Shown: positions 14,359-50,613 of the stretch, piece after piece
How positions within the stretch are numbered: the first letter of the stretch is position 1
Layout of the letters: each line of letters begins with the position of its first letter
IMG/VR virus record: IMGVR_UViG_3300045391_000045
Coordinates: 1 to 64,000 of that record
DNA: 64,000 nucleotides
From: a virus
Strand: one strand, 5' to 3'
Program-made: the position numbers and the translations under genes
Notes under the pieces: generated by a model
What the model was told of the DNA's origin: nothing
Databases searched by the model: none
Seen by the model: only the letters and a program-made list of their open reading frames with translations

Positions 14359-14445
14359 GGAAGGTCAATCCGATTGGCGACGGAACTTGTCTTGAAAACA
14401 AGCGAGGTGTGAAAGCCCTTAGGAGTTCGACTCTCCTACCTTCCG
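14359..14445 (+). tRNA. tRNA-Ser (anticodon TGA)
   Basis: acceptor GGAAGGT/ACCTTCC perfect, anticodon arm CTTGT-CTTGAAA-ACAAG, long variable arm, T-arm AGGAG-TTCGACT-CTCCT. Confidence 0.6.
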
Positions 14446-14730
14446 CTTTACCCTAAGGAGTAAAATTGACTGAGACAGAGAATGTCGGTCCTACATCGTA
14501 TCAGCTAGCAATCATCCTTGCACTTCAGAGCAAGCATGTATACGCTAACACAGTTAGTTACGATGAGATTGCACGACGACGTAAGGCAAGCAAGCGAGCG
14601 CGGCTACAGCGCAGAACAAACAGAAGGCTTGACACGACACGTCGCTCGTGATAAGGTTTTATTAGATGGTCGGCAAGCAGGGAAGAGAAGGCTACAGGAG
14701 CTTGAGCAACAACACCTTCCACCATCACAT

Positions 14731-15933: not shown

Positions 15934-17550
15934 ATGTCTAATGCACTTGGTAAGTTTGCTGCTTCTCAGAAGCAGGAGCGCGTTGCTACGCCTCAGACAA
16001 AGCGTACCCCTGGTCGTACGGATGAGGTCAAGAACAACGCGGGCGGGTTTGTGTTCAAGGTAGACGACAAGTCTCGTCTTGAGCGCTTCCTGGTGTTGGG
16101 TACTGACAAGGGTACCTATTACGTTGGTGAGCAGAAGTTGACGGCTCAGAACATTTCCTTCCTGAAGGAGATGGTCCGTAAGGATGAGCGTCTGGTCGTG
16201 GACACTGCTGTTGACGTCTCTGTAAACGCTCGTGCGCTTAAGAATTCTCCTGCGCTGTTCGCTATGGCTCTGGTCATGACGGAGGGCAAGGACAAGGCTT
16301 ACGCTCGTGAGGCCGTACAGAAGGTTGCTCGTACGTCTACCCACCTTTTCGAGTACGCACAGTACATCGATGACCTGGGTGGTTGGGGTCGAGCAAAGCG
16401 TCGTTCTGTCGCTGAGTGGTACGAGAACAAGTCTATCGATGCGCTTGCGTATCAGGCTGTGAAGTACCGTCAGAGGAACGGTTGGACGCACCGTGACCTT
16501 TTCCGTCTTGCTCACCCTCAGGGTGTAGACCAGGGTGTTGGTAACTTCATCCTTGGCAAGGACGTTGAGGCTGAGGTGGAAATTCTTAAGGGCTTCGCTG
16601 CAATGCAGTCTGCGACTTCGGTCAAGGATGTTATTCGCACGCTGGAGACTTTCAAGAACCTTCCTTGGGAGACCATCCCTACTCAGTTCCTCAAGGATGT
16701 GAAGGTCTGGAAGACTCTGTTCTACAACGGTCAGCTTCGTGGCCAGGCTCTCATTCGCAACATTACTCGACTCGCTCGAATTGGTGCGTTTGATGACATG
16801 GTTTTCGCAACTGACTACGCGAACGCAATTGCTAACCAGGAAATGATTCAGAAGACTCGTCTTCACCCAATCAACTTCCTGAATGCGGTTGTTGTTCACG
16901 AGAGTGGACAGATTGACCGTAACGGTTACAGCATGTGGAGTGCCGGACGTAAGAAGGATTGGAAGTCTAACGGAAAGATTGTGGATGCTCTCAATGAGGG
17001 ATTCCACATGGCATTCAAGACTGTCGAGCCTTCTGGCAAGAGGACTCTGGTTGCGACTGACGTGTCTGGCTCAATGAGTCAGGCTGCCATCGGACTTGAC
17101 CTCTCTTGTGCTCAGGTTTCTGCGGCTGTTGCTATGACGGTTGCGCGTTCCGAGCCTTACAGTGACATTGTTGGCTTCTCTAGCAGCATTGTTGACTTGG
17201 GCATTACCGCTAAGAGTTCTTTTGCCGACGCAATGCGTAAGGTGAGTAACAGGAACTTTGGTGGTACGGATGCGGCTGCTGCAATTAAGTACGCTAACCA
17301 GAAGGGAATTCAGGTTGACACCTTCGTAGTTATCACTGATAACGAGACGTGGGGCGGAAGCCAGAAGCCTTTCCAGGCACTTAAGCAGTACCGTCAGAAG
17401 ACCGGAATTGATGCGCGTCTTGCGGTTCTCGGTGTGGCGTCTACGGACTTCACCATCGCTGACCCTACGGACCGTGGAATGATGGACTTCGTTGGTTTCG
17501 ATGCAAATGCGCCTAAGGCCCTCGCGGACTTCAGCGCTGGTCGTATCTGA
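15934..17550 (+). CDS. rsr: Ro60-like ribonucleoprotein (TROVE domain + C-terminal vWA/MIDAS)
   Basis: 538 aa; TROVE-like N-terminal region; MIDAS motif VATDVSGSM...TD; RBS AAAGGATTAGAAAAATG. Confidence 0.8.
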   Translation: MSNALGKFAASQKQERVATPQTKRTPGRTDEVKNNAGGFVFKVDDKSRLERFLVLGTDKGTYYVGEQKLTAQNISFLKEMVRKDERLVVDTAVDVSVNARALKNSPALFAMALVMTEGKDKAYAREAVQKVARTSTHLFEYAQYIDDLGGWGRAKRRSVAEWYENKSIDALAYQAVKYRQRNGWTHRDLFRLAHPQGVDQGVGNFILGKDVEAEVEILKGFAAMQSATSVKDVIRTLETFKNLPWETIPTQFLKDVKVWKTLFYNGQLRGQALIRNITRLARIGAFDDMVFATDYANAIANQEMIQKTRLHPINFLNAVVVHESGQIDRNGYSMWSAGRKKDWKSNGKIVDALNEGFHMAFKTVEPSGKRTLVATDVSGSMSQAAIGLDLSCAQVSAAVAMTVARSEPYSDIVGFSSSIVDLGITAKSSFADAMRKVSNRNFGGTDAAAAIKYANQKGIQVDTFVVITDNETWGGSQKPFQALKQYRQKTGIDARLAVLGVASTDFTIADPTDRGMMDFVGFDANAPKALADFSAGRI

Positions 17551-18912: not shown

Positions 18913-18990
18913 GCCCCAGTATCGCCACTGGCTTCTAACCAGTCGTTAACAGCGTAATGGAGTATGCAGGTTCGAATCCTGTCTGGGGTA
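18913..18990 (+). tRNA. atypical tRNA-like gene (anticodon TCT, Arg) with 5-nt D region and 22-nt variable arm
   Basis: acceptor GCCCCAG/CTGGGGT, anticodon arm ACTGG-CTTCTAA-CCAGT, T-arm GCAGG-TTCGAAT-CCTGT; no D-arm can be folded. Confidence 0.4.
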
Positions 18991-19942: not shown

Positions 19943-20101
19943 ATGGAAGAGTATACTCTGACTTTGCAGTTGACTGTGAAGATTGAGGCACCAGACGCAG
20001 GTGACGCATTGGACGTAGCACTCGACACTTTTGGCAAGGGTTGCGCTGGTGGCGTGGATGTGGTAGAGTATGAGGTGTTGAAGATTGCTGAACCTAAGTG
20101 A
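19943..20101 (+). CDS. hypothetical small protein
   Basis: 52 aa ORF, coupled to upstream gene. Confidence 0.3.
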   Translation: MEEYTLTLQLTVKIEAPDAGDALDVALDTFGKGCAGGVDVVEYEVLKIAEPK

Positions 20102-24006: not shown

Positions 24007-24014
24007 CTGTGTAT

Positions 24015-24086
24015 GCCCTTGAAGTTCAAAGGATGAACAACTCCCTCCTAAGGAGCAGGCTGCTGGTTCGAATCCAGTCAGGGGCA
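24015..24086 (+). tRNA. tRNA-Arg (anticodon CCT)
   Basis: acceptor GCCCTTG/CAGGGGC, D GTTC/GAAC, loop CTCCTAA, T-arm GCTGG-TTCGAAT-CCAGT. Confidence 0.6.
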
Positions 24087-24191
24087 CAAGAAAAAATATA
24101 CAAGGCACAGGGGTTTGGCCCGTCCCCGAATCATGAGCCTTGGGTTCTCGTCCATAGAGAATTTAAGTCAACGGGCCTGCCAAGGAGTGAT

Positions 24192-24386
24192 ATGGCTAAG
24201 ACAAGGAAAATGATTGGCGTCTACTTCGGCAATGATAAGAAAAAGAACTGGATTGGTTCTGCTCATAACAAAGCCATGGTAGAGTTGCTTATTGAAGCAC
24301 ATATGGGCGCTACTGGAAGAAAGCGCAATGAGTACAAAACGTTCAACTATACTGATGACCCTGAAAAATTGGGGCCACCAGACTAA
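24192..24386 (+). CDS. hypothetical protein
   Basis: 64 aa; RBS CAAGGAGTGATATG; the longer track ORF 24009-24386 overlaps tRNA-Arg. Confidence 0.45.
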   Translation: MAKTRKMIGVYFGNDKKKNWIGSAHNKAMVELLIEAHMGATGRKRNEYKTFNYTDDPEKLGPPD

Positions 24387-24665
24387 GGGGTAGCTTGGTT
24401 TCGACTTTGCTGGACGGGATATAAACGCAACCCTTCTTGGTCAAAGAAGTAAAACGGGCCAACCAAATAAATGCAAACTCTATGAATGCATCTGCTTTCG
24501 CTCTAGCAGCGTAAAAGCCGGGTTTGTCGGGAACCTAGGAACAGAATCCCGACTAGTACAAAATGTGTAGATAATGTGTAAGACCCTTCAGTGTGATTGA
24601 CAATGGTTGTAGAACGGTTATATGCTAGATAGTAAAGGACGCGGGTTCGACTCCCGCCTACTCCA
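24387..24665 (+). ncRNA. ssrA: tmRNA (ssrA), tag ANSMNASAFALAA
   Basis: 5' GGGGTAGCTTGGTTTCGAC...GGACGGGAT like tmRNA 5' end; in-frame tag GCA AAC TCT ATG AAT GCA TCT GCT TTC GCT CTA GCA GCG TAA (24473-24514); 3' T-arm GCGGG-TTCGACT-CCCGC + acceptor CTACTCC pairing GGGGTAG. Confidence 0.8.
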
Positions 24666-24676
24666 CACAGAAAGAT

Positions 24677-24856
24677 ATGGTAATGAGAGTAACAAATCTC
24701 TACATCTATGGTACTGTCGAGTACCTGCGTAGGCTTGAGGAAGACTACGTGTTCATGGGTAGACAAGTGAGACTTGAAGATGATAGGCTCATCGTGTTCG
24801 CGCTTCCCAGGAAGAAGCGAAAGAAGTCTCCCAGTAAGCAGCGCCGTAGGCGTTGA
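24677..24856 (+). CDS. hypothetical basic small protein
   Basis: 59 aa ORF with Lys/Arg-rich tail. Confidence 0.3.
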   Translation: MVMRVTNLYIYGTVEYLRRLEEDYVFMGRQVRLEDDRLIVFALPRKKRKKSPSKQRRRR

Positions 24857-25447
24857 CAGACAGGGTTGGAACCTGTTAAGGTATAAGTAGAAGGTCAGGC
24901 AGTCGGACAAGGCTTAGGCGAGTGAGAGTAGTTCAAGCGGTGGTAACTTAAATGCCCACTTAATGATGCTCAACAAATCGGTGGGATGCGAGTGGACTAG
25001 TCCTGACCTTTTAAGCTTCAATCTGTGGATAACGAAAGGGGTCCGGCGTTCTGTGAACTGGCAGTCGGGTAGCCTGGCATGATACAATAAACCTCTAGCG
25101 GGGTTAGTCACCCAAGAGTAAAGTTCATTGAGGGTGAGCAGATTGAAAACTAGGTTGCGAGAGGGACAACGGGTGTGCTAAGGTTAGGTACCGAATCAAG
25201 GCACCAAGGTAGATAAGGGGAGAACAGCAAAGGGTCTCCGTGTATCGCAACCAAGCTTTGCAGCAAGCAGGCCAAACGCTATAGACAGGGATACAAGGTT
25301 CTGAAAAGATAACGCCCATTTGGCAGGGTAGAAAGTTATCACCTGATGCTATCCACGCTGCAACTATGGAGATGACCGGAAACTTCTCCATAAGCTTCCT
25401 TCGTACAAAGCTGTAGGAATAAAAACAAACACGAAGGGTATTAAAAT

Positions 25448-28817: not shown

Positions 28818-29885
28818 ATGGTACACGTTTCGAAGATTTTCTCGCTCGATGCGTTGCAGAAGGATATCGATGCGGGATTGGTACGTTCACAGGTAAATGA
28901 GGATGGGACGCTCCGCATTTACAATTACACCGAAGAGGTTCAGTACAAGCGAATGTGGAATGACGTTACGCTGAATTGTCGTGGCCTTATTCTCGACAAT
29001 TACATGCACGTTGTTGCTCGTCCATGGAAGAAGTTCTTCAATTTCGGTGAGCGTCCTCTTCTATTCAGCACTGACACTCCGGTTGAGGTGACTGACAAGA
29101 AGGATGGTTCATTGGGTATTCTTTATCGTCACCCAATGACCGGGGATTACCGAATTGCAACTCGTGGCTCTTTCTTGTCTGACCAGGCTATTCACGCTAC
29201 AAAGGTCTGGGACAACAAGTACAGCCACATCGCACAGCCTTGGGATGGAGTTACATTCCTGTTTGAGATTGTGTACCCTGACAATCGCATTGTGCTGGAT
29301 TACGGTGAGCTTGATGACCTAATCTTGCTGGGTGCCGTTCACAATCAGTATGGATGGTACTACGGTCCGAACGAGGCTGCTGGGATGCTCAACTGGACTG
29401 GTCCTGTCACTGAGGTCTTTGAGTACCGGACCACGAACGACTGCTTCAAGGTGCACCGTTCAAATGCTGAGGGTCTGGTAATTCGGGCCGGTAGCGAGAT
29501 GGTCAAGTTGAAGCAGGAGGACTACGTGGCTTTGCACAAGCTAGTCACAGGTCTGAACGAGCGTGCTGTATGGGAGCGCTTGAAGGCAGGCGAGACACGT
29601 GATAGTATCTGTGCATCGCTTCCCGATGAGTTCCACGGATTTGTTGACAAGGTTGCGGATGAGCTAGAGACAAAGTTCAACGAGATTTACCACAGTTCCC
29701 ACGTGGATTACTGTAAGGTGTTGAACATAATGCCTGGCAAATCAAGCATGAGTAAGGCAGACTGGCGTAAGATGTTCGCATCGCACGCTGTTAAGATGCC
29801 TAACTACGACTTGATTTTCAACTACCTTGACAACCGTCCGGTACAGGAGTCTATTTGGAAAATGATTCGTCCTAAGGGCGAGTAA
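28818..29885 (+). CDS. ATP-dependent RNA ligase, Rnl1-like
   Basis: nucleotidyltransferase motif I VTDKKDGSLG (KxDG), 355 aa. Confidence 0.65.
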   Translation: MVHVSKIFSLDALQKDIDAGLVRSQVNEDGTLRIYNYTEEVQYKRMWNDVTLNCRGLILDNYMHVVARPWKKFFNFGERPLLFSTDTPVEVTDKKDGSLGILYRHPMTGDYRIATRGSFLSDQAIHATKVWDNKYSHIAQPWDGVTFLFEIVYPDNRIVLDYGELDDLILLGAVHNQYGWYYGPNEAAGMLNWTGPVTEVFEYRTTNDCFKVHRSNAEGLVIRAGSEMVKLKQEDYVALHKLVTGLNERAVWERLKAGETRDSICASLPDEFHGFVDKVADELETKFNEIYHSSHVDYCKVLNIMPGKSSMSKADWRKMFASHAVKMPNYDLIFNYLDNRPVQESIWKMIRPKGE

Positions 29886-29924: not shown

Positions 29925-30203
29925 ATGAAAAATCTGGATTATGAAAAAGTCATTGATGGATATAACGACCTTCGTGAAACATGCCTTGTAATTGCTAAGC
30001 TTAACGATGAGCTGATGGGTCCTGACAGATGGCTGAAGTTTGCCATCCAAGACTCGGATATCACGTTGATGTTTACAGAGCGAGGCATCGTGTGCTATGG
30101 TAGTGCTTACACGACACAGACGATGGACAACGAACACTTCAGTTTCATGATTCCGTTTGAATATCTAGAGGAGTTTGAGGCAAATGCTAGAACTGGTGAT
30201 TAA
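29925..30203 (+). CDS. hypothetical protein
   Basis: hairpin-CAAGCTT-GGAGGAGAAATG upstream. Confidence 0.5.
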   Translation: MKNLDYEKVIDGYNDLRETCLVIAKLNDELMGPDRWLKFAIQDSDITLMFTERGIVCYGSAYTTQTMDNEHFSFMIPFEYLEEFEANARTGD

Positions 30204-30603
30204 CCGGGGGATTCCTGGTAGTGGAAAGTCAACATATGCTCGTGAGTGGGTATTGAAGCCAGGAACCAGACGTGCTAGGGTTAATCGTGATGACATTCGA
30301 ATGCAGCTCTATGGAGTTGAATTCGGTGTCCCGATTGAGGAGACTGTAGTAACGGCGGTTGAAGACCAGATGATTAACACCTTGCTTTCTGAGGGTGTCT
30401 CAGTCATCATTGATGACTGTAACATCAGTCAGCGATACATCAACAGGTTTACAAAGATGGGCGAGAAGCATGGCGCAGAGGTGAGAGTTAATCTCATCAA
30501 CGTTGACCTTGCGACTGCTCTGGACCGGAATAGCAAGCGTGACCGTTTCGTTCCAACCCATGTAATTCAGGATATGTATAAGAGACTTCAGGAGTCGCTG
30601 TAA
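30175..30603 (+). CDS. polynucleotide 5'-kinase (P-loop, T4 Pnk kinase-domain-like)
   Basis: Walker A GIPGSGKST, RxxxR; adjacent to RNA ligase. Confidence 0.6.
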   Translation: MRQMLELVINRGIPGSGKSTYAREWVLKPGTRRARVNRDDIRMQLYGVEFGVPIEETVVTAVEDQMINTLLSEGVSVIIDDCNISQRYINRFTKMGEKHGAEVRVNLINVDLATALDRNSKRDRFVPTHVIQDMYKRLQESL

Positions 30604-49962: not shown

Positions 49963-50613
49963 ATGAGAGAGTATTCAAAGACCGATAACCTTTACAAGCG
50001 TAACCCTAAGAAGAAGTCTGAGCTTATCGTCGGAGATTACACCCGGCCGGAATTCGCTCATATCGTTTCTTGGTGGGTTACCGAGAAGGTTGATGGTACT
50101 AACGTTCGTCTTTGGTTCGACAAGGACGAGAACAGTGAATATCGTGGGCGTACAGACAATGCACATTTCAGCCCGGTGCAGCATGAATTCATGAACAACC
50201 TTCGTGATTCAATTAAGGAAGATGCAGTAAGCCTTATCCATCGTTTTGGGCTTGATGAGCTGCTTATCTTTGGTGAGCTTTATGGACCGAAGATTCTTTC
50301 TGGTGGCAACTACTCTGACAGTCTGGAGTTCCGAGCGTTTGACATGATGGTTAACGATAAGGTATGGTTGCGACCTGACGCAGTTGAGGAGAACGCAGCA
50401 GACCTTGGGCTGACCATGGTTCCGAACCTTGGCATGATGACTACGGCTCAAATCTTTTTCATGGTAGCTGGCGGATTCAAGTCCACCTTTGCCAAGAACA
50501 AGGATTTCGATGCTGAGGGTGTTATTGCACAGCCTGCGGTAAACCTGTATGACCAGCGTGGAGAGCGTGTTAAGTTCAAGTTGAAGCACAACGATTTGAA
50601 GCATGTAAGTTGA
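49963..50613 (+). CDS. Rnl2-family RNA ligase (minimal adenylyltransferase domain)
   Basis: motif I TEKVDGTN (KxDG), LIFGELYG, KFKLK; 216 aa. Confidence 0.6.
   Translation: MREYSKTDNLYKRNPKKKSELIVGDYTRPEFAHIVSWWVTEKVDGTNVRLWFDKDENSEYRGRTDNAHFSPVQHEFMNNLRDSIKEDAVSLIHRFGLDELLIFGELYGPKILSGGNYSDSLEFRAFDMMVNDKVWLRPDAVEENAADLGLTMVPNLGMMTTAQIFFMVAGGFKSTFAKNKDFDAEGVIAQPAVNLYDQRGERVKFKLKHNDLKHVS

Follow-up and report, generated by a model that had tools for sequence, protein, structure and literature searches.

A tmRNA gene in a phage tRNA array

We analysed a stretch of 64,000 nucleotides (nt) of viral DNA (hereafter the window; positions 1 to 64,000 of IMG/VR record IMGVR_UViG_3300045391_000045), in which the original prediction, made from the letters alone, had placed a phage-borne transfer-messenger RNA (tmRNA) gene with an assigned tag peptide. 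On the plus strand, ARAGORN called a tmRNA spanning 24387..24666, in which gene positions 87-128 encode the tag ANSMNASAFALAA*. The Rfam model RF00023 matched 24387..24668 from end to end (model positions 1-374) with 84.4 bits and an E value of 2.8e-31 in the 64-kb window, above its curated gathering score of 47. These were the two checks that the prediction had proposed, ARAGORN and cmscan, and both returned a tmRNA. The gene lies inside a 32-kb array of 31 tRNA genes and small open reading frames (ORFs) on the same strand, and its surroundings follow the order tRNA-Arg(cct), small ORF, tmRNA, small ORF and Band-7 gene, as in Streptomyces phage Francob. Rfam matched no other RNA family within the gene, nor any riboswitch such as the glutamine riboswitch described in a phage ssrA. 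These calls, the homologues in related phages and the covariation described below bear out the prediction, and indicate that region 24387-24666 is very probably a genuine tmRNA (ssrA) gene that looks functional. Its carrier is a virulent Streptomyces phage with a genome of ~129 kb, from cluster BE (family Stanwilliamsviridae).

The elements that had suggested a tmRNA can all be read in the sequence. The 5' end carries the quoted GGGGTAGCTTGGTTTCGAC...GGACGGGAT. The internal frame opens with the resume codon GCA at 24473, reads GCA AAC TCT ATG AAT GCA TCT GCT TTC GCT CTA GCA GCG TAA and closes, as foreseen, on an ALAA-stop (ORF end GCTCTAGCAGCGTAA). Close to the 3' end, the T-arm GCGGGTTCGACTCCCGC (GCGGG-TTCGACT-CCCGC) is followed by CTACTCC, complementary to the 5' strand GGGGTAG. 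The end coordinate originally given, 24665, is right and corresponds to the discriminator A; the DNA then reads ...CTCCA-CAC, and a CCA end is not encoded. The gene has 280 nt, as compared with the 374 positions of the Rfam model. Coordinates of the features described here are collected in Table 1.

Table 1. Features of the tmRNA gene, its neighbours and related loci (window coordinates unless a locus is named).
Feature	Position	Strand	Description
tmRNA gene	24387..24666	+	280 nt; ARAGORN, RF00023, 35 phage records
Acceptor stem, 5' strand GGGGUAG	24387..24393	+	Pairs with CUACUCC 24658-24664; 7 pairs, 100% paired
D-loop analogue CUUGGUUUCGA	24394..24404	+	No D stem; GG.UUCGAC invariant in 12 homologues; Rfam consensus GGaUUCGAC
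Helix 2, 5' strands	24405..24432	+	2a 24405-24412, 2b 24416-24427, 2d 24428-24432; covariation
PK1	24433..24461	+	Stem a 24433-24437/24445-24449; stem b 24438-24442/24457-24461
Tag frame	24473..24514	+	GCA, 13 codons ANSMNASAFALAA, stop UAA; ARAGORN and sequence
Helix 5 hairpin	24494..24518	+	Holds end of tag frame and stop codon; 81% of cells paired
PK2-position pseudoknot	24520..24553	+	S1 GGGU 24520-24523/ACCU 24533-24536; S2 GUCGGGA 24526-24532/UCCCGAC 24547-24553; L3 AGGAACAGAA 24537-24546
3' linker at PK3/PK4 site	24554..24604	+	51 nt; holds conserved single-stranded UGAUUGAC (24594-24601) leading into helix 2
T-arm GCGGG-UUCGACU-CCCGC	24641..24657	+	100% paired; two double-changed pairs (AGGGG/CCCCU, GGGGG/CCCCC)
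Upstream small ORF, 64 amino acids (aa)	24192..24386	+	87.5% identity with Francob gp132; lies outside the RNA
Small basic ORF, 57 aa (59 aa from start 24677)	24683..24856	+	Conserved; basic tail RKKRKKSPSKQRRRR
Divergent small basic proteins	L068 2280-2468; L411/L412 3001-3204; L413 3001-3162; L414 2665-2895	n/a	Near tmRNA
Ro60 homologue	15934-17550	+	TROVE and Ro60 vWA (vWA_Ro60)
RNA ligase	28818-29885	+	T4 Rnl1 type
P-loop kinase	30175-30603	+	Annotated as polynucleotide kinase in Francob
Second RNA ligase	49963-50613	+	PF09414

The phage and its relatives

Between positions 20000 and 30000, the window was 86% identical to Francob over 91% of the length, with the same gene order. Homologues of the tmRNA gene occurred in 35 records of the phage collection, all from Streptomyces phages and nearly all annotated as tmRNA features, 28 of which covered at least 80% of the query; blastn found no similarity outside Streptomyces phages in this collection. 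The best match was the tmRNA gene of Francob (94.9% identity, with an identical annotated tag), and that of the Comrade group was 91.5% identical. The collection held no record identical to the window tmRNA, whose acceptor stem differs from that of Francob by three compensatory pairs.

These relatives are assigned to Stanwilliamsviridae, corresponding to SEA-PHAGES cluster BE, with Gilsonvirus, Annadreamyvirus, Faustvirus and Wakandavirus in the subfamily Loccivirinae and Wofford in Boydwoodruffvirinae. The tmRNA gene is one of a set of syntenic homologues in collinear Streptomyces phage genomes of ~125-133 kb. A protein encoded beside the window tmRNA was 100% identical to one on a 129,142-bp JGI contig, which probably represents the same phage.

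Every BE1 phage contains one tmRNA and 43-48 tRNAs (PMC5764925), a count repeated in later genome announcements, and the published BE papers count the tmRNA by ARAGORN only, with nothing on its structure or function. The phage tmRNA phenomenon and this gene family in cluster BE are already known, then, and the window gene is a new sequence variant; as one more tmRNA in a group with routine one-per-genome annotation, it changes little. It shares position, length class, overall architecture and the module at the second pseudoknot position (PK2, see below) with the tmRNAs of Francob, Comrade, Gilson, Annadreamy, Faust and Wakanda, and with that of Wofford. The less expected parts, as judged from sequence comparison, are its two-pseudoknot form, a loop module apparently restricted to viruses and a linked small protein.

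In GenBank, the tmRNA features of Gilson, Moab and Wakanda carry the product 'Hypothetical Protein', which hides them from searches by product name; in our match table, Limpid and Muntaha had this label as well.

Conservation of the fold

To evaluate the fold, we built a MAFFT alignment of twelve sequences, the window gene and eleven homologues representing five genera, with the structure written in gene coordinates. Over 56 pairs, 90.2% of the cells were paired, as compared with 40-50% when the 3' partners were slid by 1-3 columns. Both sides had changed in 22 pairs, against 10.5 expected, and 22 was reached in 0 of 500 shuffles. The 56-pair count leaves out the S2 stem after the tag, because an alignment gap split its 3' strand; this stem was treated by loop anchoring (see below). 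The covarying helices span two phage subfamilies, and the genera are only 77-79% identical in the tmRNA gene. Folding of the single sequence was uninformative, with a z-score of only -1.14, and was discarded as evidence.

The tRNA-like domain comprises a 7-bp acceptor stem, the discriminator A and the alanine identity pair G3-U70 (24389 with 24662), which is G-U in 12/12 sequences. Three acceptor pairs have changed on both sides, giving for example GGGCCUG/CAGGUCC in Francob. The domain also contains a fully paired T-arm and a D-loop analogue, whose segment GGUUUCGAC is invariant.

Helix 2 connects this domain to the mRNA-like part. Its segments 2a, 2b and 2d pair with 24630-24637, 24615-24626 and 24605-24609, respectively, and were paired in 95.8%, 78.3% and 100% of the cells; 12 of their 25 pairs have changed on both sides, and Wakanda forms a perfect 12-bp helix 2b. 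The first pseudoknot (PK1) stands just 5' of the resume codon, with its two stems paired in 93% and 88% of the cells; compensatory changes appear in Faust (AGUC/GACU and GAGU/ACUC) and in Wofford. Helix 5 shows two pairs changed on both sides (CGCU/AGCG to CGCC/GGCG).

The tag reading frame

Upstream of the resume codon, the sequence AUAAAU puts a U at position -5 and an A at -4, and U82, A83, A85 and U86 were invariant in the alignment. In E. coli tmRNA, the bases at the U(-5)/A(-4) positions set the reading frame. The frame itself begins with an alanine resume codon behind these conserved bases, ends in ALAA and has its stop codon in helix 5. The tags of the relatives are ANSNFALAA, ANSRNAFALAA, ANSKNASAYALAA and ANSNVASAYALAA, with ANYKNASAYALAA in TunaTartare. 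They differ by whole codons, including length differences of two and four codons, and all end in (F/Y)ALAA-stop, a pattern that clearly points to selection on the tag as a translated frame.

The last six residues of the window tag, AFALAA, are what Clp proteases of other bacteria recognise in a tag. They also form the C-terminal end of the host tag, whose last ten residues in S. coelicolor and S. lividans are SSQQAFALAA (PMC2635970). The tag uses the codons GCA, AAC, UCU, AUG, AAU, GCU, UUC, CUA and GCG, with A/U-rich third positions, and each of these has a corresponding tRNA among those of the window (Ala-UGC, Asn-GUU, Ser-UGA, Met-CAU, Phe-GAA and Leu-UAG). Such codons and matching tRNAs fit a phage of 47% G+C growing in a Streptomyces host of ~72% G+C (PMC2635970).

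A shortened RNA with one pseudoknot after the tag

Canonical tmRNAs are ~360 nt long and contain three pseudoknots after the tag, whereas the window RNA has 280 nt (268-298 nt among the homologues) and a single one. Between helix 5 and helix 2, Rfam deleted 87 positions of the model, with low posterior probabilities, and it aligned the outer thirds confidently. In the 51-nt linker that occupies the site of PK3 and PK4, the 12-sequence alignment showed no helix conserved across genera. Other genera have an extra small hairpin in the linker, which reads GCUC-UUCG-GAGC in Beuffert and, with compensatory changes, GAGC-UUCG-GCUC in Annadreamy. The original prediction had expected pseudoknots in the plural, and the data support PK1 and one further pseudoknot at the PK2 position; PK3 and PK4 found no support, and there is little room for them. 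PK2-PK4 are typical of the bacterial form but variable or replaceable, and their reduction here marks the lack of PK3 and PK4 as that of a reduced variant, whose membership among tmRNAs stands.

The element that follows the tag (24519-24553) reads C-GGGU-UU-GUCGGGA-ACCU-AGGAACAGAA-UCCCGAC. Unlike in canonical tmRNAs, the upstream GGGU can pair with the start of the loop of a hairpin (stem S1), the hairpin stem being S2, and the remaining loop AGGAACAGAA is nearly invariant. In the alignment, CCUAGGAACAGAA was invariant in 9/12 sequences, and the other three varied only at the A after CCU. Conversely, S2 is highly variable, with GUCGUUG/CAACGAC, GUGGGG/CCCCAC and GCAACU/AGUUGC among the relatives and ACCAGUU/AACUGGU in TunaTartare. 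Counting relatives and IMG/VR sequences, and with search offsets widened to admit 4-7 extra loop bases, we found 24-39 distinct complementary versions. The case for S2 rests on these versions because the cross-pairing control was weak, with a mean of 4.8 bp for own strands and 3.9 bp for crossed strands (short stems, free offsets).

S1 was evaluated by an IMG/VR search that required AGGAACAGAA and, at a defined distance, a T-arm, leaving the S1 bases free. The majority version was GGGU/ACCU, accompanied by GGGU/ACCC, GAGU/ACUC, GGGC/GCCU, GAGC/GCUU, GAGA/UCUU and GUGC or GUGU/GCAU, the version of TunaTartare being GUGC/GCAU. Each variant was represented in tmRNAs scoring above the Rfam threshold and lying among tRNA genes. 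Over 39 distinct modules, S1 was 98.1% paired, as compared with 5-56% when slid; 11 cells were double changes, against 1.1 expected, and 0/500 shuffles reached 11. One pair was seen as G-C, A-U and U-A, and another as U-A, C-G and A-U. Together, these comparisons favour an H-type pseudoknot formed by S1 and S2 at the PK2 position over nested pairing.

The competing nested helix, GGGUUU (24520-24525) with AGACCC (24581-24586), came from the minimum free energy fold of the single sequence and was rejected: the Annadreamy group and TunaTartare do not retain it, whereas compensatory changes maintain GGGU/ACCU. Wofford and some IMG/VR sequences are able to form both the nested pairing and S1. We also looked for an intramolecular partner of the loop AGGAACAGAA; its complements were scattered, occurred at about the chance rate and included none that was consistent.

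The module in viral and cellular DNA

A search of IMG/VR with the 14-mer ACCTAGGAACAGAA returned at least 120 loci. Since ~60% of the 14-mer matches are due to chance, we used ARAGORN as a filter. Among the matches listed, the motif lay inside an ARAGORN tmRNA in at least 49 loci, always ~18-40 nt past the tag stop, and every module confirmed in this way had the upstream CGGGU and a variable flanking stem. These tmRNAs, also among the matches listed, are 334-451 nt long (mostly 360-420) and have unrelated tags, and two are permuted two-piece forms. Their surroundings are tRNA arrays, and the viral contigs that carry them reach 413 kb. With the window RNA they share C-GGGU, the linker, the variable stem and A-CCU-A-GGAACAGAA, and both stems covary alike; they differ from it in being mostly longer and in their often long and unlike tags (e.g., DEMSTMTFEDLMAFVGADYAVAA). 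Against isolated phages, blastn of three IMG/VR tmRNAs (L014, L027 and L013) and of locus L413 gave no match, and that of locus L411 only short, weak ones. The module is not universal in viral tmRNAs, an idea that we discarded because the loop was present in only 3/73 distinct tmRNAs of a sample drawn by an unrelated T-arm pattern.

We then scanned 185,579 cellular species genomes with the pattern CGGGT-N(4-20)-CCTAGGAACAGAA, which captures the exact commonest form only, and obtained 51 matches. Three of them (L144, L157 and L181) had a tmRNA T-arm downstream, and two more were similar, so that at most 5 of the 185,579 genomes contain the commonest form in a tmRNA-like setting. All five are on contigs of metagenome-assembled genomes (MAGs), of 3.4, 5.0, 7.4, 21.5 and 22.1 kb, and one of the MAGs is assigned by its label to the archaea, which have no tmRNA; they are most simply explained as misbinned phage DNA. 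The remaining matches lacked tmRNA features, and by a rough estimate their number does not exceed chance. As far as this pattern can tell, the commonest form of the module appears essentially absent from cellular tmRNAs, including those of Streptomyces. The motif string did not occur in the searchable literature.

A tentative reading of this distribution, to which we give somewhat less than an even chance, places the window tmRNA in a lineage confined to viruses, or among tmRNAs that share a mobile module, marked by the PK2-position pseudoknot with its 4-bp covarying stem and the loop AGGAACAGAA. If so, phages would possess a form of the ribosome-rescue RNA that they evolved themselves and perhaps exchanged; the ribosome or a protein would make specific contact with the loop AGGAACAGAA; and in the actinophage branch the RNA would also travel with a dedicated small basic protein (see below). 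A near-invariant loop in otherwise very different viral tmRNAs, almost absent from cellular ones, offers a mutable handle on why phages carry tmRNA.

Proposed function and alternative explanations

The window RNA shares with canonical tmRNA (RF00023; E. coli and S. coelicolor SsrA) a tRNA-like domain with G3-U70, the T-arm, helix 2, PK1, the resume codon, an ALAA tag and a stop codon in helix 5. Judged by these predicted features, every sequence and structure element required for trans-translation is present.

A scan for promoters and terminators between 21000 and 27000 gave counts equal to the shuffle expectation. Because the gene lies in a same-strand array without such signals above chance, the tmRNA is probably excised from a long transcript, in which case host RNase P would cut the 5' end and 3' trimming would free the RNA. 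Both the tRNA genes (11742-44030) and the tmRNA gene end in the discriminator and a single C, with no full CCA (...CUCCA-C-AC in the tmRNA), and the whole set must therefore rely on an enzyme that adds CCA. Francob has none annotated, and the small nucleotidyltransferase of the window is cytidylyltransferase-like. The mature 3' end would probably consist of the discriminator A at 24665 and a CCA added post-transcriptionally by the host enzyme.

With neither SmpB nor a CCA-adding enzyme annotated in Francob, the tmRNA would rely on host factors. It would be charged by the host alanyl-tRNA synthetase (AlaRS) through G3-U70 and delivered to stalled ribosomes by host SmpB and EF-Tu. Ribosomes stalled on broken or stop-less mRNAs would be released during infection, with translation resuming at GCA and adding ANSMNASAFALAA. 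The tag end AFALAA is that of the host tag, and products carrying it should therefore be broken down by ClpXP-type proteases of the host. What the phage probably gains is a ribosome pool kept usable during infection.

Several points weigh against this reading. The RNA lacks PK3 and PK4, and a two-pseudoknot tmRNA would have to work efficiently with Streptomyces SmpB and ribosomes. The gene does not encode its 3' CCA, and no SmpB is annotated in Francob, a statement that concerns the annotation of this relative only, as no sensitive search of the window ORFs was made. The host already has its own tmRNA, and the benefit of a second copy is not evident; moreover, a phage with mismatched codons could suffer if its own slowly translated proteins were tagged. 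Finally, the function of tmRNA in this phage group is predicted from sequence and covariation.

The alternative that survives best keeps trans-translation and gives it counter-defence value, as one arm of an RNA-damage-response island directed against host anticodon nucleases and mRNA-cleaving toxins or defences, whose cuts strand ribosomes on the cleaved RNAs. Genes for Ro60, an Rnl1-type ligase, a kinase and a further ligase share a strand and a region with the tRNAs and the tmRNA. Phage T4 uses its Pnk and Rnl1 to mend tRNA that PrrC has cleaved. The tRNA set itself may counter tRNA-degrading defences, as Hughes et al. suggest (PMC5764925). However, the basis for this proposal is gene neighbourhood alone, the genes do not make up a tight operon but are scattered along ~35 kb of a collinear genome, and no such defence system has been tied to these phages; we thus regard it as possible, if on the unlikely side.

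It is improbable that the tmRNA acts mainly as a decoy, binding host SmpB, and perhaps AlaRS or EF-Tu, to block or outcompete host trans-translation. The RNA is shortened, and without an SmpB annotated in Francob it would compete with host tmRNA; a phage molecule reduced to the tRNA-like domain could titrate SmpB, as was proposed for mycobacteriophage DS6A (Hudson et al., PMC4131195). Nonetheless, the window RNA contains a full mRNA-like domain and conserves PK1, U(-5)/A(-4), the resume codon, the in-frame tag, the ALAA end and the stop in helix 5, none of which a decoy needs.

Still less probable is an inactive relic, either of a captured host ssrA or of an attachment site. tmRNA genes are common sites of prophage integration, and ssrA fragments occur in prophages (PMC9004378); the missing PK3, PK4 and encoded CCA would also agree with decay. 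Yet the gene is full length from the 5' to the 3' acceptor strand, its helices covary across genera with only 77-79% identity in this gene, the phage group is described as lytic and no integrase is annotated in Francob. The presence of the PK2 module in almost none of the cellular species genomes further argues that it is not a recent host copy.

We can practically dismiss the possibility that the region codes for protein through the 135-codon open frame on the minus strand (24503..24910), which overlaps the 3' 164 nt of the tmRNA gene: it has a TTG start and no Pfam match, is closed by stops in Francob and other relatives, and runs antisense to the tmRNA and to a conserved plus-strand ORF, whereas all annotated genes of Francob from ~5.5 kb to the genome end are on the plus strand. 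Since it has no Pfam match and is not kept open in relatives, this ORF is, on comparative grounds, spurious, as the original prediction had stated for long ORFs on both strands; on the plus strand, that statement does not apply, because only ORFs of 33-36 aa cover the gene.

Comparison with other phage tmRNAs

Trans-translation by a phage-encoded tmRNA thus remains our preferred reading of the gene. Phage tmRNAs are known from the Bxz1 group and from Bacillus phage G (PMC4131195), and a survey found ssrA in 402 of 18,146 phage genomes (PMC9004378). According to the publications, the carriers, including the pelagiphage and OM43-phage with two-piece forms, are likewise large, tRNA-rich phages. 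The window RNA is not of the permuted two-piece kind: RF04321 gave 38.8 and 23.8 bits, below its threshold of 47, and the gene is in one-piece order. As a natural minimal tmRNA, of 280 nt with PK1 and one other pseudoknot, it is convenient for asking which parts the ribosome of a Gram-positive, high-G+C bacterium requires. The small basic protein encoded near the tmRNA, and the ClpP adjacent to it in L411 and L412, provide further handles.

Neighbouring genes and other observations

The 57-aa ORF starts 10-16 nt past the window tmRNA, and its homologues (53-93% identity) start 10-17 nt past the tmRNA in all Loccivirinae relatives. The model of the protein has a beta-alpha-beta-beta core, with a predicted local distance difference test score (pLDDT) above 90, and a disordered basic tail (overall pLDDT 83). 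It gave no Pfam, PHROG or significant fold match, and its family comprised 53 clusters only among 5.8 billion proteins. In five loci that we checked, which encode divergent members (30-44% identity), the protein was near a tmRNA in 5/5, with varied order, spacing and tags: 99-249 nt upstream of the tmRNA in L412, L411 and L068, and ~780 nt downstream in L413 and L414. Two of these five tmRNAs are without the PK2 module. This proximity suggests that the 57-aa protein is functionally linked to the tmRNA, as a possible partner; alternatively, gene order inherited among distantly related phages may explain it.

L411 and L412 have the tmRNA and the gene order in common, and in both a phage ClpP gene (PF00574; 1760-2506 and 2149-2895, respectively) lies just upstream of the small basic protein and the tmRNA. 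ClpP is the kind of protease that degrades tagged proteins. There is no ClpP in the tmRNA region of the window or of Francob.

On the other side of the tmRNA, the 64-aa ORF had no family match in Pfam or PHROG. Its stop codon TAA (24384-24386) abuts the first base of the tmRNA, and an RNase P cut would end that mRNA exactly at the stop. The same abutment occurs in Gilson, and a gap of 3-4 nt in MeganTheeKilla and Moab. A plus-strand ORF of 125 aa (24009..24386) also stops just before the tmRNA; this longest form runs through tRNA-Arg.

The tmRNA gene of TunaTartare (L002 1491-2269; NC_070784.1 ~80158-80936) is interrupted after the PK2 module by ~510 nt, which hold an ORF annotated as HNH endonuclease/endonuclease VII; the site is that of the small hairpin of Faust. 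Both halves and the tag are intact, and Rfam scored the gene at 50.5 bits, although ARAGORN and the GenBank record miss it. No group I intron model matched the insertion at E <= 0.01. It could be an intron, an intervening sequence giving a split tmRNA, or a tolerated insertion.

The tRNAs, Ro60 and RNA ligases that the original prediction had listed as context are all present: the 31 tRNAs called by ARAGORN are on the strand of the tmRNA, and the Ro60 homologue and the two ligases, together with the kinase, form an RNA repair and quality-control set on that same strand (Table 1). The 'extensive reprogramming of host translation' that it drew from them is a reading of gene content.

About 1.4 kb downstream of Ro60, a tRNA-like gene at 18913-18990 (+) scored 34.2 bits with the Rfam tRNA model (threshold 29); it was not called by ARAGORN and is not annotated in Francob. 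It has acceptor, anticodon (loop CUUCUAA, with UCU for Arg) and T arms and a long variable region, with ~4 nt replacing the D-arm. The sequence is 100% identical in Francob, and diverged copies with compensatory acceptor changes occur in Comrade and TunaTartare. This gene is the sole tRNA-Arg(UCU) candidate of the window; a Y-RNA-like partner of Ro60 is an alternative reading. Another tRNA, at 14359-14446 (+), reached 47.1 bits with the Rfam tRNA-Sec model (threshold 47) and was called tRNA-Ser(UGA) by ARAGORN; it is most likely an ordinary long-arm tRNA-Ser.

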